Below, one piece after another: positions 2,813-54,090 of a stretch of DNA of 64,000 bases (position 1 is its first letter; every line of letters starts with the position of its first letter). Under the pieces are notes generated by a model. It was not told the origin of the DNA, did no database searches, and saw only the letters and a list, made by a program, of their open reading frames with translations. The stretch comes from an uncultured Methanosarcinaceae archaeon. GTDB taxonomy: Archaea > Halobacteriota > Methanosarcinia > Methanosarcinales > Methanosarcinaceae. A program made the translations under genes and the position numbers. The stretch spans positions 1-64,000 of the forward strand of contig CAVSHT010000004.1 in assembly GCA_963727895.1 (NCBI GenBank), written 5' to 3'.

Positions 2813-3668
2813 AGTTCCGTTGCAAAAAATATCTGCTAGGGATATACTAAAATAAAAATGAAATCAAAGATGGTGATATACTATCTAATTCCTTTAAATG
2901 GAAACACTTTGTAAGTGAAATTATCTTATTGAATGTGAGATGGTACTTAAAATACCCACTTAGCTATAGAAATTTAAAGGACATGATGGCAGAAAGGGGA
3001 GTAGAAGTTGATCACAGTACTATCATGAGATGGGTACATCAATATTCACCTGAAATAGAAAAGAAGGTCAGAAGACATTTAAGACCAACTAATAACTCTT
3101 GGAGAGTTGATGAGACTTACGTAAAAGTGAAAGGTGAATGGAAATATTTTTACCGAGCAGTTGACTCAAATGGAGATACAATTGATTTCGTGTTAAGTGC
3201 AAAACGAGACCAAGAAGCAGCGAACAGATTCTTCAAAAAAGCTTTGAACTCTAATCATAATCAAATTCCAAGAGTAATAACAGTTGACAAAAATCCAGCT
3301 TATCCACCTGCTATAGATAAACTGAAAAATGATAAAATACTACCTATAAACGTAGGCATTCGACAAATCAAGTATTTGAATAACATTATAGAACAAGATC
3401 ATAGATCCATTAAACGAATAGTTAATCTAATGTTAGGATTTCAGTCTTTTCGATCTGCCAACAAAACTTTAAAAGGAATTGAAGCTATGAATATGGTTAA
3501 AAAAGGACAAATCAAAAATTTTAATTATTCTGGTCTTAATGAAGCTAAATATATTAATCAATTATTTAGAATAGTTCTATAATATTGACACATTTTCTTA
3601 AATATTTGTACTTTTGTTTATTGATTATGGATTTACATGCTTATTCTGAGATTTTTTGCAAAGGAACC
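2813..3668 (+). mobile_element. IS6-family element; transposase start codon mutated
   Basis: TIR (G)GTTCCGTTGCAAAAA at both ends; DDE transposase motifs WRVDETY, ITVDKNP, NNIIEQDHR; ATG of other copies is ATA here. Confidence 0.95.
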
Positions 3669-3934
3669 GTTTTTCCACCTCAGTACAGAACTGTGAAGTA
3701 GTACCAATACAAAAAATTGATATTGACAACAATGAAACTCAATTGGGGTACATACCATGTTATCAGCTTCTTGCCCCTGAAGTGGACAGCCTTCTAACGC
3801 TTGAGCCTACTATTTCTTCAAGAACCATTGCCGAAAGACTTAACATAGGGAAGGATACGGCGCTAAAAGCCAAAAAATACATTAGAGATTCAAGAGCTTC
3901 CAGGTATCAAGAAAAAACGCCTGGATTAATATGA
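3669..3934 (+). pseudogene. C-terminal fragment of an HTH-containing backbone protein, truncated by IS6 (copy 1)
   Basis: SSRTIAERLNIGKDTALKAKK is HTH-like; homologous to 35738..36017; begins directly at the IS6 end. Confidence 0.6.
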
Positions 3935-8117: not shown

Positions 8118-8718
8118 GGTGTTGATACTTAAACATAGTTATATACTATTAGAAAGTATATTTCTTCATGAACTGCCCCATATGCAATAGTTCCAGTCAC
8201 AAAAAGAACGGTATAGTTGGTGGGCTTCAACGCTACAAATGCCATGATTGTGGATATAACTATACAGTAGAGCTAAAATCAACTGCTTTTTCCGCCTCTG
8301 TTAAAAGACAGGCTTTACAACTTTACCTTGAAGGATTGGGCTTTCGTTCAATAGGAAGAGTTTTAGGGGTGAGTCATGTTTCTGTCCAAAAATGGATCAA
8401 GAAATTTGGTCAGGAGTTAGAGAACCTAAAAAGTGAAAGTGAGATATCTATTGTTGAAATGGATGAGATGCACACTTACATAGGTAACAAAAAAAATATT
8501 GCTGGATCTGGATTGCTGTTGATGGAGTTGGGAAAAAGTTCATCAACTGCTCTTTTGGCAGCAGAGGAACGGAAACTGGAAAACTACTCTGGGAAAAATT
8601 GAAGAAAAAAGACATTGGAGAAGTGATAACCGATCACTGGAGAGCATATGCAGAGTTTATTCCAGAAAAGAGTCATACTCAATCCAAACAAAAAAGTATA
8701 CTGTTGAAGGATATAACA
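8118..8718 (+). mobile_element. IS1-family element, 3'-truncated at an IS6-type end
   Basis: InsA zinc finger CPICNS...YKCHDCG + HTH; A-run frameshift site; InsB-like EMDEMHTY; stops at GGTTCTGTTGCAAAAA. Confidence 0.9.
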
Positions 8719-14094: not shown

Positions 14095-14951
14095 GGTTCC
14101 GTTGCAAAAAATATCTGTTAAGGATATAATCAAATAAAAGGGAAGTAAAGGATAATGACATGCTATCTAATCCCTTTAAATGGAAGCATTTTGTGGGTGA
14201 AATTATTTTATTGAATGTTAGATGGTACTTAAAATATCCATTAAGTTATCGAAATTTAAAGGAAATGATGGCAGAAAGGGGAGTAGAAGTTGATCACAGT
14301 ACTATCATGAGATGGGTACATCAATATTCACCTGAAATTGAAAAAAAGGTCAGAAGGCATTTAAGACCAACAAACGACTCTTGGAGAGTTGATGAAACTT
14401 ATATCAGAATTAAAGGTAAATGGAAATATTTTTACCGAGCAGTTGACTCAAATGGAGATACAATTGATTTTATGTTAAGTGCAAAACGAGACCAAAAAGC
14501 AGCGAAACAGATTCTTCAAAAAAGCTTTGAATTCTAATCATAATCAAATTCCAAGAGTAATAACAGTTGATAAAAATCCAGCTTATCCACCTGCTATAAA
14601 TAAACTGAAAAATGATAAAATACTACCTATAAACGTAGGCATTCGACAAATCAAGTATTTGAATAACATTATAGAACAAGATCATAGATCCATTAAACGA
14701 ATAGTTAATCCAATGTTAGGATTTCAGTCTTTTAACACAGCTATTAAAACTTTAAAAGGAATTGAAGCGATGAATATGATTAAAAAAGGACAAGTCAAGA
14801 ATCTAAATTACTCTGGTCTTAATGAAGCTAAATATATTAATCAATTATTTGGAATAGTTCTATAATATTGATACATCTTCTTGAATATTTTAACTTCTGT
14901 TCATTGTCTATAGATTTACATGCTTATTCTGAGATTTTTTGCAACGGAACC
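14095..14951 (+). mobile_element. IS6-family element, transposase frameshifted
   Basis: Both TIRs; +1 A near 14505 splits the ORF into 14160..14537 and 14479..14865. Confidence 0.95.
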
Positions 14952-22600: not shown

Positions 22601-23456
22601 GGTTCCGTTGCAAAAAATATCTGTTAAGGATATAATCAAATAAAAGGGAAGTAAAGGATAATGACATGCTATCTAATCCCTTTAAATGGAAGCATTTTGT
22701 GGGTGAAATTATTTTATTGAATGTTAGATGGTACTTAAAATATCCATTAAGTTATCGAAATTTAAAGGAAATGATGACAGAAAAGGGAGTAGAAGTTGAT
22801 CACAGTACTATCATGAGATGGGTACATCAATATTCACCTGAAATTGAAAAAAAGGTCAGAAGGCATTTAAGACCAACTAATAACTCTTGGAGAGTTGATG
22901 AAACTTATATCAGAATTAAAGGTAAATGGAAATATTTTTACCGAGCAGTTGACTCAAATGGAGATACAATTGATTTTATGTTAAGTGCAAAACGAGACCA
23001 AAAAGCAGCGAACAGATTCTTCAAAAAAGCTTTGAATTCTAATCATAATCAAATTCCAAGAGTAATAACAGTTGATAAAAATCCAGCTTATCCACCTGCT
23101 ATAAATAAACTGAAAAATGATAAAATACTACCTATAAACGTAGGCATTCGACAAATCAAGTATTTGAATAACATTATAGAACAAGATCATAGATCCATTA
23201 AACGAATAGTTAATCCAATGTTAGGATTTCAGTCTTTTAACACAGCTATTAAAACTTTAAAAGGAATTGAAGCGATGAATATGATTAAAAAAGGACAAGT
23301 CAAGAATCTAAATTACTCTGGTCTTAATGAAGCTAAATATATTAATCAATTATTTGGAATAGTTCTATAATATTGATACATCTTCTTGAATATTTTAACT
23401 TCTGTTCATTGTCTATAGATTTACATGCTTATTCTGAGATTTTTTGCAACGGAACC
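22601..23456 (+). mobile_element. IS6-family element, intact transposase 22666..23370
   Basis: Both TIRs; full 234-aa DDE ORF. Confidence 0.97.
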
Positions 23457-23917: not shown

Positions 23918-25357
23918 TCATACAGTGCTTTCTGTACTATTCGAATTTATATTTACCGTGGTATTGGTTAGGGTGTTCCCTGAATAATCTCCATTATAAT
24001 TTTTAGTACTTGAATTGTTTCCACTATTTGTGGTGCTTCCTGCACTTTCACCACTATTTGTGGTGCTTCCTGCACTTTCACCACTATTTACGGTGTTTCC
24101 TGAGCCATCATCATAAGTTCTGGAGCCTGAGTCATCAGCATTATTTATGGTGCTTCCGGATCCATCGCCAACATTTATAGTGCTTCCTGACTTATCGCCA
24201 GCGTTTATGGTGGTTCCTGAGCCATCATCATAAGTTCTGGAGCCTGAGACATCTCCATTATTTATGGTGCTTCCGGCTTTATCGTCAGCATTTATTGTGC
24301 TTCCTGAACCAGTACCTGTATTGATAGTGCTTCCTGAACTATCACCAACATAATTTCTGTCGCCTGAATCCTCACCGTTATTAACGGTGCCGCCTGCTAC
24401 ACCACCATTATTATTGTTGCTTCCTGCATTATAACCATTATTAATGTAGCCTCCTGCTAAATCCCCAGCATAATTTTTGGCACCTGATCCATCACCATAA
24501 TTTAGGTAGGCATAGGCATTCTCACCATAGTTATTGTAGGCCCCTGCGCTGTTCCCATTGTTTATGCTGGCTCCTGCGTCGCTTCCATCATAATTTTTGG
24601 AGCCTGCGTACGTTCCATAATTAAAGGTTGATCCTGCATACGTTCCATAATTAAAGGTTGCTCCTGCATTATCTCCATTATTTACGGTGCTTCCTGCATT
24701 AGTTCCAGTATATGATTTACTCCCTGAATTAGTTCCTGTATTTACAGTAGCTCCTGCGTACTTTCCTTTATTGTCAGTACTCCCTGTTGTAGAAGTCTTA
24801 GAAGCAATATCTGCTTTTGCTTTAGAAGCAGTGTTCTTTGTGCTTGATTCATTGGTAACAGGATTAGTTGTGCATGACTCATTGTTAGCAGTGACATTGT
24901 TAGCAGTGACATTGTTAGCAGTGACATTGTTAGCAGTGCTCGTTGTATTCAGTTCATTGCCAACGGTGTTACTTGAACTTGAGCTTGAACTCCGGTGATG
25001 GCAAACTGTGGTACTTGATGTCTGTCCATTTACGGTGCTCCCTGCATTCTGTCCATTGCTGACTGTGAGATTGTTAACCATAAGGCTGTTAATTGAGACA
25101 TTGATAAATGTCACGTTAACAAATGTCACATTGTTAAATTCGACACTTTCAAATGAAACATTACTAAGTGTATTTCCTGAACTCAATTCATCATTAAATG
25201 ACATATTGTTTAACATGTTATCTTGATTGGCACATGTGTTAATTGAATTATTGTTGCCTCCTGTGTTATCCGCTGCGGTTGCGGCAGTTGTCAATAATAT
25301 TAATACTGTGAAAAGATAACCTGTCTTTTTCAGGATGTTAAATACTTGTTTTCTCAT
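23918..25357 (-). CDS. secreted Asn/Gly/Ser/Thr-rich protein with ~26 decapeptide repeats
   Basis: Signal peptide; pentapeptide-spaced VxFxN segment; (NNVTA)3; repeats of [AS]G[SA]TxNxG[DT]x. Confidence 0.9.
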   Translation of the reverse strand: MRKQVFNILKKTGYLFTVLILLTTAATAADNTGGNNNSINTCANQDNMLNNMSFNDELSSGNTLSNVSFESVEFNNVTFVNVTFINVSINSLMVNNLTVSNGQNAGSTVNGQTSSTTVCHHRSSSSSSSNTVGNELNTTSTANNVTANNVTANNVTANNESCTTNPVTNESSTKNTASKAKADIASKTSTTGSTDNKGKYAGATVNTGTNSGSKSYTGTNAGSTVNNGDNAGATFNYGTYAGSTFNYGTYAGSKNYDGSDAGASINNGNSAGAYNNYGENAYAYLNYGDGSGAKNYAGDLAGGYINNGYNAGSNNNNGGVAGGTVNNGEDSGDRNYVGDSSGSTINTGTGSGSTINADDKAGSTINNGDVSGSRTYDDGSGTTINAGDKSGSTINVGDGSGSTINNADDSGSRTYDDGSGNTVNSGESAGSTTNSGESAGSTTNSGNNSSTKNYNGDYSGNTLTNTTVNINSNSTESTV

Positions 25358-26413: not shown

Positions 26414-27269
26414 GGTTCCGTTGCAAAAAATCTCAGAATAAGCATGTAAATCTATAGACAATGAACAGAAGTTAAAATATTCAAGAAGATGTATCAATAT
26501 TATAGAACTATTCCAAATAATTGATTAATATATTTAGCTTCATTAAGACCAGAGTAATTTAGATTCTTGACTTGTCCTTTTTTAATCATATTCATCGCTT
26601 CAATTCCTTTTAAAGTTTTAATAGCTGTGTTAAAAGACTGAAATCCTAACATTGGATTAACTATTCGTTTAATGGATCTATGATCTTGTTCTATAATGTT
26701 ATTCAAATACTTGATTTGTCGAATGCCTACGTTTATAGGTAGTATTTTATCATTTTTCAGTTTATTTATAGCAGGTGGATAAGCTGGATTTTTATCAACT
26801 GTTATTACTCTTGGAATTTGATTATGATTAGAATTCAAAGCTTTTTTGAAGAATCTGTTCGCTGCTTTTTGGTCTCGTTTTGCACTTAACATAAAATCAA
26901 TTGTATCTCCATTTGAGTCAACTGCTCGGTAAAAATATTTCCATTTACCTTTAATTCTGATATAAGTTTCATCAACTCTCCAAGAGTCGTTTGTTGGTCT
27001 TAAATGCCTTCTGACCTTTTTTTCAATTTCAGGTGAATATTGATGTACCCATCTCATGATAGTACTGTGATCAACTTCTACTCCCCTTTCTGCCATCATT
27101 TCCTTTAAATTTCGATAACTTAATGGATATTTTAAGTACCATCTAACATTCAATAAAATAATTTCACCCACAAAATGCTTCCATTTAAAGGGATTAGATA
27201 GCATGTCATTATCCTTTACTTCCCTTTTATTTGATTATATCCTTAACAGATATTTTTTGCAACGGAACC
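26414..27269 (-). mobile_element. IS6-family element, intact transposase 26500..27204
   Basis: Both TIRs; full 234-aa ORF. Confidence 0.97.
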
Positions 27270-31134: not shown

Positions 31135-31684
31135 CAATGTTAAGGCACACTATTTTTTTTGATTATGTATCACTACAACGAGAGCGCTTAATATACCCAT
31201 CAAAACAGCAATATAAATCGACACTGTAAAACGAATTGTCCCACCCTTATTCATAAACACAACAGATGCTGAACAACTATAATAAATAGAGTACTCTATC
31301 ACTGGATAAATATAATAAAAGAAAGCAATTGAAGCTCAAAGAGCAAAAAAGCATTGTGGCAATTCGAATAATTTAGTTTTCTAGTGACCAATTTTTCATT
31401 AGTCACTATACACGCTGATTTTCTCTTAACAAAAACGGTATTGGTAATCAAAAATAGGCATATATGCTTATAACATATATTTCTTCATGAACTGCCCCAG
31501 ATGCAATAGTTCTAGTCACAAAAAGGATGGTATAGTTGGCGGGCGTCAACGGTACAAATGCTCTGATTGTGGCTATAACTATACAGTAGAGCTAAAATCA
31601 ACTGCTTTTTCCGCTTCTATAAAAAGACAGGCTTTACAACTCTATCTTGAAGGATTGGGTTTTCGCTCAATAGGAAGAGTTTAG

Positions 31685-33203
31685 CATGAAAGTACATGAG
31701 GATATCTTCCTCACGTGCTCTCTTCATCCTCTTTTCCCTTTATTGCAAATATTTCACTAATTATTTTTATCCGTTCATCAACCGAGAATATCTCGGTCTC
31801 AACAATCTTCCTCTTTTGAATTTCTCCCTTTTTGATATCCAGTTTCATCTTCGTACATCTCATCGTTTGCAATAAGATGCCATATTATCGTTGCAATTTT
31901 CCTTGCCAAGGCAATAATTGCCTTTGAATGCCCAATTGACTTCTTTTTCCTGTTAAAAAACTCTTTTAACTTACTGTTATTCTTTCTTGCCGCTGCTTGA
32001 GCAATCTGTGTCAGAATCCATCTTGCTCTCTTTGATCCTCTCTTTGTGATTCTTCCGTTGTGGTATTTATCTGCAGATTGGTACACATTAGGAACCAGAC
32101 CAAGCCAGGAAGCAAGCTTATCTCCAGAAGAAAAATCCTTGAAATTGCCTATTTCAGCAAGTAGAATTGCCGCACCAAGTTCTCCTATACCTGGAACTGA
32201 CATTAAAATCTCCATTTCTCGCTTATGATTTCGATAAGCATAATTGAAAATTTCTTTTTCTAAAGCTTCGAGTCTCATCATCAAGACTCTTTATGAGTTT
32301 CAGACAGATCTGAAGTCTGAATGCAGCACTTTGAGAGATTTCTCGATCAAGAATTTCTCTTATCTGAGCAGCTTTTTTTACGAACATTTGGAGAGAGGCT
32401 TGCGATAATCTGGTCAACAGTCTTACCTGAAGAGATTCCTGATAAGATCATTCTGCCATTCTTGCCAAAAATGTCTGTCAGCACATTCTTCAGGTTTAAC
32501 ATTTCAGATGCAAGAATTGAGTGAGCTTTATTTTTTAGATCTGTTCTTTTTTGTACAAGTGTTAACCGAAGTCGAACATATGATCTAAAATCTCTATGAT
32601 CCTTTGGAAAAACTCTTGATGGCTGAATCATATTATTAAGTGCAAGTTGTGCAATGACTTCTGAGTCAATCTTATCTGTTTTTTTATGGGTAAATACCTT
32701 CATATCTCGCGCATTTCCAACTATTACAGGTAGATGCTTTATCAATGAATCATGAATCGGAACCCAAAAGTCACTTGTTGATTCACATGCAACAACATCA
32801 CATTTTTCTGATGTTACCCAATTTTTAAGGGCTAAAATTCCCTCATCATCTCTGTTGAAACGTTGCTGTTGTTTTTCACCAGATCGACTGAGAATTGTAG
32901 CAATGAAAAAGAGTTTGTGAATGTCTAAACCACAAGCTTTGTTTATGACTTCAATCAAATTAATATCACCCAATTTATTTGGGCAGTGGAATTGCCTAAA
33001 AGGCCAATTTAGCATCCGTGATCAAAGTCACACTTGAGCCTTCGATGGCAATTCACTGATTAGTTTTATGACGGTTTTGAAAAACCAAAATCAGGACAAC
33101 CTTACTGCCCAAGGTAATGAGGGCTTAATAGTCCAAAAAAAGAACGGTAGAGTACTTTCATTTCGTTGTGCTTGTTATTCGAAGAATATCATGTGCGTTT
33201 TAG
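31685..33203 (-). mobile_element. IS110-family element (DEDD recombinase, frameshifted), copy 1
   Basis: CGLDIHK, ACESTS, KTDKIDS, SVPGIGE, WLGLVP..YQSA, ALARKIA; no conventional TIR/TSD; TTTAG at both junctions. Confidence 0.93.
32979..33112 (-). ncRNA. candidate IS110 bridge/seek RNA (structured non-coding end upstream of the recombinase), copy 1
   Basis: Closing stem TTGGGCAGT/ACTGCCCAA; internal stems AAGGC/GCCTT, GTGA/TCAC and GGTTT/AAACC are conserved in copy 2 while loops vary. Confidence 0.6.
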
Positions 33204-33746
33204 GGGTAAGCCATGTTTCTGTCCAAAAATGGATCAAGAAATTTGGTCAAGAGTGAGAGAACCTAAAAAGTGAAAGTGAGATATCTATTGTTGAAATGGA
33301 TGAGATGCACACTTACGTCGGTAACAAAAAAAATATTGCTGGATCTGGATTGCTGTTGATAGAGTTGGGAAAAAGTTCATCAACTGCTCTTTTGGCAGCA
33401 GAGGAACGGAAACTGGAAAACTACTCTGGGAAAAATTGAAGAAAAAAGACATTGGAGAAGTGATGACAGATCACTGGAGAGCATATGCAGAGTTTCTTCC
33501 AGAAAAGATTCATACTCAATCAAAAGCAGAAACATTTACAGTTGAGAGATATAACAGCATATTGAGGCATTTTCTAGCAAGATTAAGAAGAAAGACAAAG
33601 TGTTATACGAAGAGTCTTGAAATGCTAAAGTACTCGGTTATTCTATTGATGAAATACAGAAATAAAGAACTAGATATATTTAGATAACAATACCACAAAA
33701 ACAAGTTTGAATATCAAAAAAAAAGAATAGGAAAATATCTTATCTT

Positions 33747-34548: not shown

Positions 34549-34698
34549 GGTTCCGTTGCAAAAATATTTCCCTCATACTTTAAGGCTATTATTCTTTCCT
34601 TCAAATATTATTTTAACCCCAATTTGATCACTCAAATTGCTTTATTGTGAAGGTTTTCAATGATTTTGTAAAATGCCCTGATTTTTTGCAACGGAACC
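34549..34698. mobile_element. 150-bp IS6-type MITE replacing the left end of the next IS6
   Basis: GGTTCCGTTGCAAAAA TIRs; internal TTGTGAAGGTTTTCAA. Confidence 0.9.
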
Positions 34699-35737
34699 TA
34701 AAATAAAAATGAAATCAAAGGTAGTGACATGCTATCTAATTCCTTTAAATGGAAGCACTTTGTAGGTGAAATTATCTTATTGAATGTTAGATGGTACTTA
34801 AAATATCCATTAAGTTATCGAAATTTAAAGGAAATGATGACAGAAAGAGGGGTAATAGTCAACCATACAACCATTATGAGATGGGTACATCAATACTCAC
34901 CTGAAATAGAAAAGAAGATCAGAAGACATTTAAGACCAACAAATGACTCTTGGAGAGTTGATGAAACTTACATCGGAGTTAAAGGTGAATGAAAATATTT
35001 TTACCGAGCAGTTGAATCAAATGGAGATACGATTGATTTCATGTTAAGTGCAAAACGAGACCAAAAAGCAGCAAACAGATTATTCAAAAAAGCTTTGAAC
35101 TCTAATCATAATCAAATTCCAAGAGTAATAACAGTTGACAAAAATCCAGCTTATCCACCTGCTATAAATAAACTGAAAAATGATAAAATACTACCTATAA
35201 ACGTAGGCATTAGACAAATCAAGTATTTGAATAACATTATAGAACAAGATCATAGATCCATTAAAAGAATAGTTAATCCAATGTTAGGATTTTAGTCTTT
35301 TCATACAGCCATTTGAACTCTAATCATAATCAAATTCCAAGAGTAATCACAGTTGACAAAAATCCAGCTTATCCACCTGCTATAAATAAACTGAAAAATG
35401 ATAAAATACTACCTATAAACGTAGGCATTAGACAAATCAAATATTTGAATAACATTATAGAACAAGATCATAGATCCATTAAAAGAATAGTTAATCCAAT
35501 GTTAGGATTTCAGTCTTTTCATACAGCCATTAAAACTTTAAAAGGAATTGAAGCGATGAATATGATTAAAAAAGAACAAGTCAAGAATCTAGATTACTCT
35601 GGCTTTAATGAAGCTAAATATATTAATCAATTATTTGGAATAGTTCTATAATATTGACACATCTTTTTGAATATTTTAACTTTTGTTTATTGATTATGGA
35701 TTTACATGCTTATTCTGAGATTTTTTGCAACGGAACC
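34699..35737 (+). mobile_element. IS6-family element, pseudogenised, with an internal 218-bp tandem duplication
   Basis: TGA at 34990-34992; 35094-35311 repeated from 35312; right TIR ends at 35737. Confidence 0.93.
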
Positions 35738-38231: not shown

Positions 38232-38305
38232 ATCTTATACTTTATGCCAAAGACTGTATATAATGTTTACTATTCTGCTTATTAAGTAGTCATTTTCGAT
38301 GCGTC

Positions 38306-38916
38306 GGTTCCGTTGCAAAAAATATTTGTTAAGGATATAATAAAATAAAAGGGAAGTAAAGGATAGTGATATGCTATCTAATCCCTTTAAATGGAAGCAT
38401 TTTGTAGGTGAAATTATTTTATTAAATGTCAGATGGTACTTAAAATACCCATTGAGTTATCGAAATTTAAAGGGAATGATGGCAGAAAGAGGGGTAATAG
38501 TCAACCATACAACCATTATGAGATGGGTACATCAATACTCATCTGAAATAGAAAAGAAGATCAGAAGGCATTTAAGACCAACAAATGACTCTTGGAGAGT
38601 TGATGAAACTTACATCGGAGTTAAAGGTGAATGAAAGTATTTTTACCGAGCAGTTGAATCAAATGGAGATACAATTGATTTCATGTTAAGTGCAAAACGA
38701 GACCAAAAAGCAGCGAACAGATTCTTCAAAAAAGCTTTGAACTCTAATCATAATCAAATTCCAAGAGTAATCACAGTTGACAAAAATCCAGCTTATCCAC
38801 CTGCTATAAATAAACTGAAAAATGATAAAATACTACCTATAAACGTAGGCATTCGACAAATCAAGTATTTGAATAACATTATAGAACAAGATCATAGATC
38901 CATTAAAAGAATAGTT
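38306..38916 (+). mobile_element. IS6-family element, 3'-truncated by IS1
   Basis: Left TIR; same Trp-to-TGA stop as the 34699 copy. Confidence 0.92.
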
Positions 38917-40603: not shown

Positions 40604-41471
40604 GGTTCCGTTGCAAAAAATATCTGCTAAGGATATAATTAAAATAAAAATGAAATCAAAGGTAGTGACATGCTATCTAATTCCTTTAAATGGAAGCACT
40701 TTGTAGGTGAAATTATCTTATTGAATGTTAGATGGTACTTAAAATATCCATTAAGTTATCGAAATTTAAAGGAAATGATGACAGAAAGAGGGGTAATAGT
40801 CAACCATACAACCATTATGAGATGGGTACATCAATACTCACCTGAAATAGAAAAGAAGGTCAGAAGACATTTAAGACCAACAAACGACTCTTGGAGAGTT
40901 GATGAAACTTACATCGGAGTTAAAGGTAAATGGAAATATTTTTATCGAGCAGTTGACTCAAATGGAGATACAATTGATTTCATGTTGAGTGCAAAACGAA
41001 ATAAAAAAGCAGCAAACAGATTCTTCAAAAAAGCTTTGAACTCTAATCATAATCAAATTCCAAGAGTAATAACAATTGATAAAAATCCAGCTTATCCACC
41101 TGCTATAGATAAACTAAAAAATGACAAACTACTACCTATAAACGTAGGCATTCGACAAATCAAGTATTTGAATAACATTATAGAACAGGATCATAGATCC
41201 ATTAAACGAATAGTTAATCCAATGTTAGGATTTCAGTCTTTTAACACAGCTATTAAGACTTTAAAAGGAATTGAAGCGATGAATATGATTAAAAAAGAAC
41301 AAGTCAAGAATCTAAATTACTCTAGTCTTAATGAAGCTAAATATGTTAATCAATTATTTGGAATAGTTCTATTAATTAATTAATTAATTAATTAATCTTT
41401 GTGAATATTTTAACTTTTGTTTATTATCCATAGACTTACATGCTTATTCTGAGATTTTTTGCAACGGAACC
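40604..41471 (+). mobile_element. IS6-family element with an open transposase ORF 40670..41383
   Basis: Both TIRs; (ATTA)n expansion at the stop codon. Confidence 0.96.
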
Positions 41472-52296: not shown

Positions 52297-52544
52297 GGCA
52301 TTGGTAAACAAAAATAGATATATGTGCTTATAACATATATTTCTGCATGAACTGCCCAAAATGTAATAGTTCTAATCACAAAAAGAATGGTATAGTTGGC
52401 GGGCGTCAACGCTACAAATGCCATGATTGTGGATATAACTATACAGTAGAGCTAAAATCAACTGCTTTTTCCGCTTCTGTAAAAAGACAGGCTTTACAAC
52501 TCTATCTTGAAGGATTGGGCTTTCGCTCAATAGGACGATTTTAG
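52297..52544 (+). mobile_element. IS1 left fragment ending at the IS110 insertion site
   Basis: GGCATTGGTAAAC end; insA up to FRSIGRF. Confidence 0.9.
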
Positions 52545-54056
52545 CATGAAAGTACATGAGGAGATTATCCTCACGTGCTCTCTTGATCCTTTTTCCCCAT
52601 AATCGCAAATATTCCACTAATTATTTTAATCCGTTCATCAACCGAAAAAAGCTCAGTCTCAATAATCTTTCTCTTTTGGATTTCTCCCTTTTGATATCCG
52701 GTTTCATCTTCGTCCATCTCATCGTTTGTAATAAGATGCCATAGTATCGTTGCAATTTTCCTTGCTAAAGCAATAATTGCTTTTGCATGTCCAATCGACT
52801 TCTTTTTTCTGTTAAAAAACTCTTTTAACCTGCTATTCTTCTTTCTTGCTGCTGCTTGAGCAATCTGTGTCAGAATCCACCTTGCTACTTTTGATCCCCT
52901 CTTTGTGATTCTGCCGTTATAGTATTTATCTGCAGATTGATACACATTAGGAACTAGACCAAGCCAAGAAGCAAGCTTATTTCCAGAAGAAAAATCCTTA
53001 AAGTTGCCTATTTCAGCAAGTAAAATTGCCGCACCAAGTTCCCCTATACCTGGAACTGACATTAAAATCTCCATTTCTCGCTTATGATTTCGAGAAGCAT
53101 AATTGAAAATTTATTTTTCTAAAGCTTCGAGTTCATCATCAAGACTTTTTATGAGTTTTAGACAGATCTGAAGTCTGAATGCAGCACTTTGAGAAATTTC
53201 TCGATCAAGAATTTCTCTTATCTGAGCAGCTTTTTTCCGAACATTTGGAGAGAGGCTTGCAATAATCTGATCAACACTCTTACCTGAAGAGATTCCTAAT
53301 AAAATCATTCTGCCATTCTTGCCAAAAACGTCTGTCAGAACATTATTCAGGTGTAGCATTTCAGATGCAAGAATTGAGTGAGCTTTATTTTTTAAATCTG
53401 TTCTTTTTTGTACAAGTGTTAACCGAAGTCGAACATATGATCTAAAATCTATATGATCCTTTGGAAAAACTCTTGATGGCTGAATCATATTATTAAGTGC
53501 AAGTTGTGCAATGACTTCTGAGTCAATCTTATCTGTTTTTGTATGGGTAAATACCTTCATATCTCGCGCATTTCCAACTATCACAGTTAGATGCTTTACC
53601 AATGAATCATGAATCGGAACCCAAAAGTCGCTGGTTGATTCACATGCAACAACATCACATTTTTCTGATATTACCCAATTTTTAAGGGCTAAAATTCCTT
53701 CATCATCTCTGTTGAAACGTTGCTGTTGTTTTTCACCAGATCTGCTGAGAATTGTAGCAATGAAAAAGAGTTTGTGAATGTCTAAACCACAAGCTTTGTT
53801 TACAATATCTACCAATTAAAATCACCAAAGTTATTTGGGCAGTGAAATGATCTCAAAGGCAATTTGACATCTGTGATCAAGGTCACATTTGAGCCTTCGG
53901 CGGTATTTAGTGGTTAGTTTTAGTAAGGTTTTGAAAAACCAAAATAAAGACAACCTTACTGCCCAACATTACAAGGGCTTAGTAGTCAAAAAAGAGAAGG
54001 TAAAGTACTTTCATGTATTTGTGCCTGTTATTCGAAGAATTTCATGTATGTTTTAG
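52545..54056 (-). mobile_element. IS110-family element, frameshifted, copy 2 (IS1 on the left, IS6 left end on the right)
   Basis: ORFs 53111..53815 and 52571..53074; TTTTAG at both junctions. Confidence 0.93.
53835..53966 (-). ncRNA. candidate IS110 bridge/seek RNA, copy 2
   Basis: Same closing stem TTGGGCAGT/ACTGCCCAA and internal stems as 32979..33112. Confidence 0.6.
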
Positions 54057-54090
54057 TATATCCCTAGCAGATATTTTTTGCAACGGAACC

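Follow-up and report, generated by a model that had tools for sequence, protein, structure and literature searches.

The insertion sequences (IS) of the IS110 family are experimentally RNA-guided (PMC11208160, PMC11208158; also PMC11187229). Here we analyse a member of this family from an uncultured Methanosarcinaceae archaeon (assembly GCA_963727895.1), a decayed copy of which (copy 1) interrupts an IS1 element in the first 64,000 nucleotides of contig CAVSHT010000004.1; this whole stretch is called the window, or C4:1-64000, the C-numbers being contig labels of this assembly (G000). According to PMC11187229, IS1111-group elements have a long right end (RE) whose guide RNA lies downstream of the transposase, unlike the element studied here, where it would lie upstream in the left end (LE); the paper also reports natural guide reprogramming among relatives. 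PMC11208160 and PMC11208158 describe, for each loop of the IS621 guide RNA, a left-arm sense guide on the 5' strand and a right-arm antisense guide on the 3' one; the element's right end serves as the left donor arm. By these descriptions, our element resembles IS621 of E. coli in the DEDD and Transposase_20 domains of its recombinase, in its long LE and short RE, in a predicted LE RNA of transposase sense with two internal loops, in the loop strands themselves (one sense to the left flank plus core, the other antisense to the core plus right flank, the two overlapping on the core) and in a natural target that is a multicopy repeat. It differs from IS621 in that both loops are reversed, the right-arm guide (antisense) occupying the 5' strand and the left-arm guide (sense) the 3' strand; in a crossover that appears to fall in an A run instead of a CT dinucleotide, CT adjoining in both donor and target, one base off; in its archaeal host; and in a protein match limited to the C-terminal domain (phmmer against the IS621 transposase structure 8wt6, E = 3.7e-9, residues 224-362, the catalytic serine being judged from this alignment). 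In the predicted guide RNA the guide sides are swapped in the LE of all copies (e.g. 32981-33110), in loci L031-L034 and L048, and in a Methanospirillum lineage of 54% protein identity.

The targeting of another transposon by an element of the IS110 family, to which IS1383 presumably belongs, is already in print and is known from bacteria. Muller, Lauf and Hermann reportedly found in 2001 that IS1383 targets the inverted repeats of IS1384 in Pseudomonas putida H, and Partridge and Hall are said to have described in 2003 the targeting of Tn21-family inverted repeats by IS4321 and IS5075. Like IS1383 with IS1384, our element uses one site of another insertion sequence as a specific target; in that case, however, the terminal inverted repeat is targeted, whereas here the site is internal to insA of IS1 (and, for a second sublineage called type II, 34 nt inside an IS6 end). 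With IS4321 and IS5075 it shares subterminal inverted repeats and the way of life of an RNA-guided DEDD element parasitising another transposon. It is a new archaeal member of the RNA-guided IS110 elements that parasitise another insertion sequence; among the papers on IS110 and Methanosarcina listed by a full-text search, no title or abstract opening concerned this element.

Copy 1 lies with its LE at 33203 and its RE at 31685 in transposase orientation, and the locus is composed as follows.

31427..31684, plus strand: left part of the host IS1 (about 240 genomic blastn copies; empty IS1 alleles compared)
31487-31684, plus strand: truncated insA open reading frame (ORF) of the host IS1 (zinc-ribbon match)
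31685..33203, minus strand: IS110-family element copy 1, decayed (junctions, ORFs, Pfam, blastn)
31685..31695, no strand: RE-terminal arm of an 11-bp subterminal inverted repeat (CATGAAAGTAC), with its partner at 33152-33162; kept in relatives
31799..32284, minus strand: C-terminal transposase fragment, Transposase_20 (PF02371, E = 1.9e-28)
32347..33015, minus strand: N-terminal transposase fragment, DEDD RuvC-like domain (DEDD_Tnp_IS110, PF01548, E = 3.9e-21)
33152..33162, no strand: LE arm of the subterminal inverted repeat (complement of CATGAAAGTAC), 41 nt inside the left end
33204..33694, plus strand: right part of the host IS1, insB region (PF03400 on ORF 33436-33687; repeat families I8 and D17)
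8353..8377, plus strand: example of an empty IS1 target site, ATAGGAAGAGTTTTAGGGGTGAGTC (sequence comparison)

At the window-left junction the host reads ...ATAGGAAGAGTTTAG (31670-31684) and is followed by CATGAAAG (from 31685), the TTTAG at 31680-31684 that ends the left part of IS1 being shared or ambiguous with the IS110 right end. At the window-right junction ...GTGCGTTTTAG (33193-33203) is followed by GGGTAAGCCATG (from 33204), which may alternatively be written as ...GCGTTTTAG followed by GGGTAAG. The original prediction, made from the letters of the window alone, had placed the left junctions of copy 1 and of a second window copy (copy 2) at the same base of IS1 insA, had let copy 1 re-enter IS1 (TTTTAG, then GGGT) and had noticed a subterminal inverted repeat; the junction sequences bear out the first two statements, and the repeat, 11 bp long, exists in both window copies. 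The host is DDE_Tnp_IS1 by Pfam (ORF 33436-33687), and the target is the helix-turn-helix coding part of insA, at about codon 65 and ~258 nt from the IS1 end. The transposase of copy 1, which is ~94% identical to other copies, is broken into ORFs of 222 and 161 aa. By its sequence the element is assigned to the IS110 group of the IS110 family: the protein of an intact copy (390 aa) matches DEDD_Tnp_IS110 (PF01548, E = 2.5e-17) and Transposase_20 (PF02371, E = 3.6e-26), the ends fit the group (LE of 242 nt non-coding, RE of 98 nt, inverted repeat subterminal and not terminal), and there is no long target duplication, the junctions having only a T/A run in common.

The genome holds 25 IS110 loci by blastn, 19 of them full-length and six partial or interrupted. 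A table of the flanks of all genomic copies contains 24 RE junctions (the window-left side), 16 at one IS1 nucleotide and eight elsewhere, and 23 LE junctions, of which 13 are in IS1, two carry a short IS1 stub (13 or 8 nt) and eight are not in IS1. The matches to the left half of IS1 that reach the site number 238 (221 empty, 16 occupied at the same base and one unrelated), and neither the base of insertion nor the orientation of the element varies among the occupied IS1 copies. IS1 makes up ~5% of the 3.67-Mb assembly (by arithmetic, ~237 blastn copies of roughly 750 bp), and therefore 16 of 24 RE junctions at one nucleotide cannot be a matter of chance. Among the non-IS1 flanks, one is the IS6 end joined to copy 2 and one lies inside an IS6-family transposase gene (a ~68-copy repeat); the others are unique or two-copy DNA. 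The IS6-family case is the RE side of a hybrid copy (C3:103144-103450), a position that in the other ~56 copies reads CC-AAATCG, near the match of the type I guide described below. At C3:277513-277545 the LE of one copy is followed by 13 nt of IS1 (GGGTGAGTCATGT) and then by CATGTGCAGTAG, a sequence similar to the CATGTGCGTTGTAG at the element's own terminus; an earlier insertion that left a scar, or an imprecise event, may account for this arrangement. C6:20878 has a comparable IS1 stub of 8 nt.

The occupied IS1 copies were compared with the empty ones on a FastTree phylogeny of 204 IS1 copies, in which the nine occupied copies with IS1 on both sides were scored. They need eight state changes on the tree; after 300 shuffles of the labels, nine changes were needed in 268 cases and eight in 29. 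Their flanks differ mutually at 31–43 of ~735 nt (4–6%), and for seven of the nine the nearest IS1 relative is an empty copy, while the IS110 copies themselves are 98–99% identical, except the window copies 1 (~94%) and 2 (~96%). A lineage of the element marked by a 20-bp duplication occupies the IS1 alleles AAGAG, ACGA, AAGA and ATGA, whose differences lie no more than 10 nt from the junction; allelic differences of IS1 are found within this distance at both junctions. Since the occupied IS1 copies are diverged and scattered on the tree while the elements in them are nearly alike, the element has entered already-diverged IS1 copies at least eight separate times, by independent insertions.

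Very probably the 242-nt left end encodes a bridge-type RNA that steers the recombinase to this site, so that the element would enter IS1 by guide match. The left ends of 12 lineages, folded together by RNAalifold, give a consensus with an outer stem around two stem-loops, each with an internal loop; compensatory changes occur in four of its 36 pairs, and five G-U pairs, nearly invariant and valid only on the transposase-sense strand, fix the strand. The alignment shows two short variable segments flanking a conserved hairpin, and the layout of two stem-loops recurs in the Methanospirillum lineage. In copy 1 the parts are the following.

32981..33110, minus strand: bridge-RNA-like fold in the LE (RNAalifold, 12 lineages), its outer stem formed by GGGCAGT (33104-33110) with ACTGCCC (32981-32987) and enclosing the target loop and the donor loop
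33087..33095, minus strand: 5' strand of the target loop, segment A (CCTGATTTT in copy 1, CTCGATTTT in active type I)
33063..33071, minus strand: 3' strand of the target loop, segment B (TCATAAAAC in copy 1, TCCTAAAAC in type I)
33006..33017, minus strand: 3' strand of the donor loop, GGATGCTAAATT, of the same sense as the RE tip CATG-CT-AAA

Segment A reverse-complements the A run and the flank adjoining the right end, and segment B repeats, in the same sense, the flank adjoining the left end and the A run. In type I, to which 22 guide-RNA loci belong, the target loop presents on one strand CUCGAUUUU, the complement of AAAATCG, and on the other CCUAAAAC, with the sequence of CCTAAAA; jointly the two segments specify CCTAAAATCG (transposase orientation), which, exactly or in a one-base variant, occurs once per IS1 copy. 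Of 24 guide-RNA loci, 16 read CTCGATTTT and TCCTAAAAC, five have C-to-T changes that keep the pairing by G-U wobble (four in both segments, one in segment A only), and three deviate (copy 1, copy 2 and one relic). The LE RNA is thus predicted to act as a guide whose target loop would read the insA site of IS1, and the donor loop may read the RE tip CATG-CT-AAA.

Relatives of 80–88% protein identity exist in other Methanosarcina genomes and of 54% in Methanospirillum, none of them in IS1, and their loop segments follow their own flanks. Over 12 lineages, a permutation test of segment A against the RE flank gives a score of 48, with a permuted mean of 29.8 (P = 1e-5).

M. spelaei: segment A CCTTATTTT, RE flank AAATAAG; segment B AGAAAAC, LE flank AG-AAAA in 7/9 copies
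Lineage L005: segment A TTTTCTTTGG, RE flank CCAAAGAAAA
Lineage L006: segment A matches at 11/13 nt
Methanospirillum: segment A CTTAATTTT, RE flank AAAATT in 3/5 copies; segment B TTAAAAAAC, LE flank TT-AAAAAA in 4/5 copies

The 3' strand of the donor loop repeats the RE tip, and the dinucleotide within it co-varies with the tip across lineages.

CT (CATG-CT-AAA): type I and several relatives
CC: L005, L007, G004 and G012
TT: L004
GA: Methanospirillum
TC: type II, matched by a right-end relic at C5:174462

A search for type I copies of >90% identity in 40 related genomes yielded none (best 83–87%), and the unique flank of the intact copy had no orthologue in 40 genomes of the genus that would show the site empty. 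A relative ~94% identical to the element, with non-IS1 flanks on both sides, is present in an anaerobic-digester metagenome (run X3) of another study, and contigs of two public runs (X1 and X2) show the IS1::IS110 arrangement with the 20-bp duplication again.

The IS1 copies themselves are unequal targets, and the better an allele matches the guide, the more often it is occupied. The principal alleles are:

CCCTAAAA-CTCTTCC: 134 empty copies
CCCTAAAAA-TCGTCC: 46 empty copies
CCCTAAAAA-TCTTCC: 12 empty copies
CCCTAAAA-TCGTCC, the exact match: one empty copy and three occupied

Alleles with the right target TCn are occupied in 13 cases and empty in 63, while the others are occupied in three and empty in 158 (Fisher P = 4e-5). 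Before the exchange, segment B extended by one base (CCUAAAAC) is paired along its whole length with the AAGAG allele (window 31669-31684 compared with 8353-8368). It is a speculation by analogy that the HSG logic of IS621, in which cognate pairing beside the right-arm guide blocks the exchange, might explain the rare use of this allele. IS1, with ~237 sites, dominates the pool of near-cognate targets. The other seven or eight type I junctions are mostly in unique DNA and share only half of the guide match, and six of seven off-target LE junctions keep the C before CT that segment B demands; half-match recombination as the origin of off-target insertion is the subject of a preprint. Five other mixed-flank copies would most simply have arisen by recombination between copies.

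The original prediction had taken TTTAG for a short core duplicated on insertion. By the arithmetic of the junctions this does not hold: the AG beside CATG would belong to the right end of the element and the AG at the other junction to the target, the two being one base out of register, and the exchange would lie where the T run ends, the AG being specified by the guides. At the window-left junction, one T of the corresponding empty allele is missing from every occupied IS1; the A run found at the LE junction is always that of segment B (four A in type I), and at the RE junction the three A of the donor-loop strand are joined by whatever A the target has left. These features fit a conservative exchange where the A run ends on its 3' side, with the target cut as CCCT-AAAA|TCG and the donor as CATGCT-AAA|CGCAC. 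An alignment of CT/AG between donor and target was also considered; it implied the loss of one T per insertion, and the conservative, out-of-register model was preferred. A circular intermediate joining RE to LE, if formed, would have the junction ...GTACTTTCATGCT-AAA-CGCACATG..., or GCG-TTT-AGCATG in window orientation, with three T and not four.

Copy 2 may connect the element with a second target. Its surroundings are:

52297..52544, plus strand: left part of a second IS1 copy, ACGA allele, adjoining copy 2
52545..54056, minus strand: IS110 copy 2, a chimera (identity by segment; junctions)
54057..54090, minus strand: IS6 left-end stub of 34 nt, joined to the LE of copy 2
2845..2856, plus strand: unoccupied IS6 left-end site, TACTAAAATAAA, equal to the 12 nt from the target-loop segments of copy 2

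The junctions read ...ATAGGACGATTTTAG then CATGAAAG at 52544/52545, and ...TTTTAG then TATATCCCTAGC...GCAACGGAACC at 54056/54057; the arms of the inverted repeat are at 52545-52555 and 54005-54015. The continuation of copy 2 into an IS6 left end, and the empty site at 2847-2856 that had been proposed for it, are both found in the sequence: the right junction matches the IS6 left end, which in the copy at window 2814 has the sequence ...GCTAGGGATATA-CTAAAATAAA (also written ...GGGATATA-CTAAAATAAA), the last ten bases being 2847-2856. The transposase of this IS6 copy (2929-3582) matches PF13610, DDE_Tnp_IS240. The ~300 nt on the LE side of copy 2 (roughly 53757-54056, with the guide RNA at 53837-53964) are 81–84% identical to type I and 90–94% identical to a truncated relic at C4:93227-94172, while the remaining 1.2 kb are 95–100% identical to type I. 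Judged from these identities, copy 2 arose by recombination between an IS6-programmed (type II) element and a type I element resident in IS1, an origin that accounts for its mixed IS6/IS1 flanks. From the segments of copy 2, CTTTATTTT and TTACTAAAAC, the 12-mer TACTAAAATAAA is predicted, which matches the IS6 site, 34 nt inside the IS6 left end, at 12/12 positions and occurs six times in the genome; three of the occurrences have an identical position in IS6 left ends, window 2845-2856 being one of them. It is therefore plausible that the type II sublineage has guides reading TACTAAAATAAA in the IS6 left end. The donor-loop strand of copy 2 (TC) mismatches its own right end (CT), and for this reason copy 2 is probably immobile. 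The proposal that IS1 and IS6 are targets stands for the IS1 site, which was hit repeatedly; for IS6 it is plausible for the second sublineage only. Insertion sequences are not a general target class, each sublineage having one programmed site.

Several observations weigh against guidance of the element by its LE RNA as outlined above. Nine perfect 10-nt matches lie outside IS1 and none of the nine is occupied, so that base pairing alone fails to predict occupancy, and selection or a further determinant must contribute. The idea that IS1 and IS6 serve as safe harbours goes beyond the data in this respect, the empty perfect matches fitting purifying selection as well as design. The commonest allele, AAGAG (134 empty copies), fits one guide strand only, yet it is occupied three times. 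The present guides of copy 1 fit its own site poorly; they predict CATAAAATCA.., which has many scattered genomic matches and no clear target. The 12 lineages behind the permutation test of segment A are related and AT-rich, and its P overstates their independence. A guide for the start of the left end (the right donor arm) was looked for in the LE and no convincing one was found; the candidate considered, the 5' half of the inner donor hairpin, was rejected, showing no co-variation in the Methanospirillum lineage. The LE RNA would have to be expressed, and the contigs of one public RNA run (X20) hold relatives only; an Rfam scan of the intact copy and its flanks (E <= 1) returned no bridge-RNA family, only a sub-threshold chance miRNA match. 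Contigs, not raw reads, of four public runs (X1, X2, X3 and X20) contained no back-joining (circle) contig and no restored empty site. The IS6 claim rests on one junction and one relic, together with the guide match.

The best surviving of the other explanations, which we nevertheless regard as improbable, is that a short motif of a T run plus AG suffices for insertion and that the IS1 bias is made entirely by selection against genic insertions, those in dead IS1 copies surviving. It accommodates the nine empty perfect matches and the off-target copies in unique DNA, and the IS1 copies are old (nearest neighbours at most 97% identical), so that insertions in them are probably neutral. Selection cannot, however, put 16 insertions at one nucleotide of a 750-bp element, and it leaves unexplained both the excess of occupied alleles that match segment A and the co-variation of loops and flanks in genomes whose targets are not IS1.

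It is still harder to maintain that the recombinase protein itself recognises the IS1 site, the LE structure being merely a 5' UTR (untranslated region) or promoter element. Only four of the 36 predicted pairs show compensatory change, which leaves some room for such a view; yet the loop segments differ among lineages with 80–88% identical proteins and follow each lineage's flanks, and copy 2 and type I differ in guides and left-end target in spite of 95–100% identity across the bulk of the coding sequence, of which no more than the first ~60 nt in copy 2 (about 20 codons) fall within the diverged 300 nt next to the LE. The family, moreover, is experimentally RNA-guided according to PMC11208160 and PMC11208158.

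Least credible of all, and rejected by the IS1 tree, the flank divergence and the likeness of the IS110 copies, is the case set against the original prediction from the start, that of a single insertion into one IS1 multiplied by composite IS1 transposition or gene conversion: the constant base and orientation and the great abundance of IS1 would suit it, but the occupied flanks are diverged, mostly closest to an empty copy and scattered on the tree like random labels, the inserted elements are nearly alike, seven or eight junctions lie outside IS1, and the lineage with the 20-bp duplication occupies four or more IS1 alleles distinguished by positions no more than 10 nt from the junction, so that conversion tracts would need to end within a few bases.

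Guidance by the LE RNA is preferred to these alternatives. Only one intact recombinase gene is present (C4:393125-394297), that of the copy C4:393027-394539; it encodes the 390-aa protein, starts 242 nt from the LE and is followed by 98 nt. In 15 of the 19 full-length copies a 20-bp tandem duplication (ATTTCAGATGCAAGAATTGA twice) breaks the recombinase frame and yields a 162-aa DEDD ORF and a 262-aa ORF that overlap by ~13 nt (e.g. C4:466252-467784); window copy 1 is without the duplication (region 32385-32404). This frame-broken lineage is the most numerous. Most copies were probably moved in trans by the single intact gene; for the broken copies, either such movement in trans or the action of the two halves as separate chains may be envisaged. 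A trans-acting IS110 recombinase is described in a preprint.

The IS load of the genome (3.67 Mb in 19 contigs, ~36% G+C, rated 84% complete) is extreme. Besides IS1 there are 226 IS6-type ends (~110 copies, several subfamilies), and the window alone contains at least seven IS6 copies and at least five IS1 copies or fragments.

IS6 copies in the window: 2814-3674, 14095-14951, 22601-23456, 26414-27269, 34663-35737, 38305-38916 and 40604-41471

Between two inverted IS6 copies lies a block of imperfect direct repeats (23962-24762; 11 copies, 61–70% alike, with 30-nt and 117-nt spacing).

Taken at its broadest, the material may point to an IS110 clade of methanogens (Methanosarcina, Methanospirillum) in which the bridge-RNA loops are mirror-permuted relative to IS621, with the right-arm antisense guide 5' and the left-arm sense guide 3' of the inner hairpin, the cargo orientation is consequently reversed relative to the target frame defined by the guide, sister sublineages have been re-programmed against IS1 and IS6, and a frameshifted, non-autonomous sublineage outnumbers a single intact master; we put this forward as a tentative proposal, which could well prove wrong. 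The order of the guide strands in this archaeal RNA is apparently swapped in comparison with the one solved system. The genome offers a built-in natural experiment, with ~237 near-identical targets that have allelic differences at the positions contacted by the guide and an occupancy that follows the match, and with two sister guide programmes directed at two IS families. IS110 recombinases are under development for genome writing, and natural cases of this kind show how guides evolve and what specificity they have in a real genome. The case also documents the parasitism of transposon on transposon in a methanogen genome crowded with IS1 (~237) and IS6 (~110); if the broad proposal above is true, this would represent a natural arms race in archaea.

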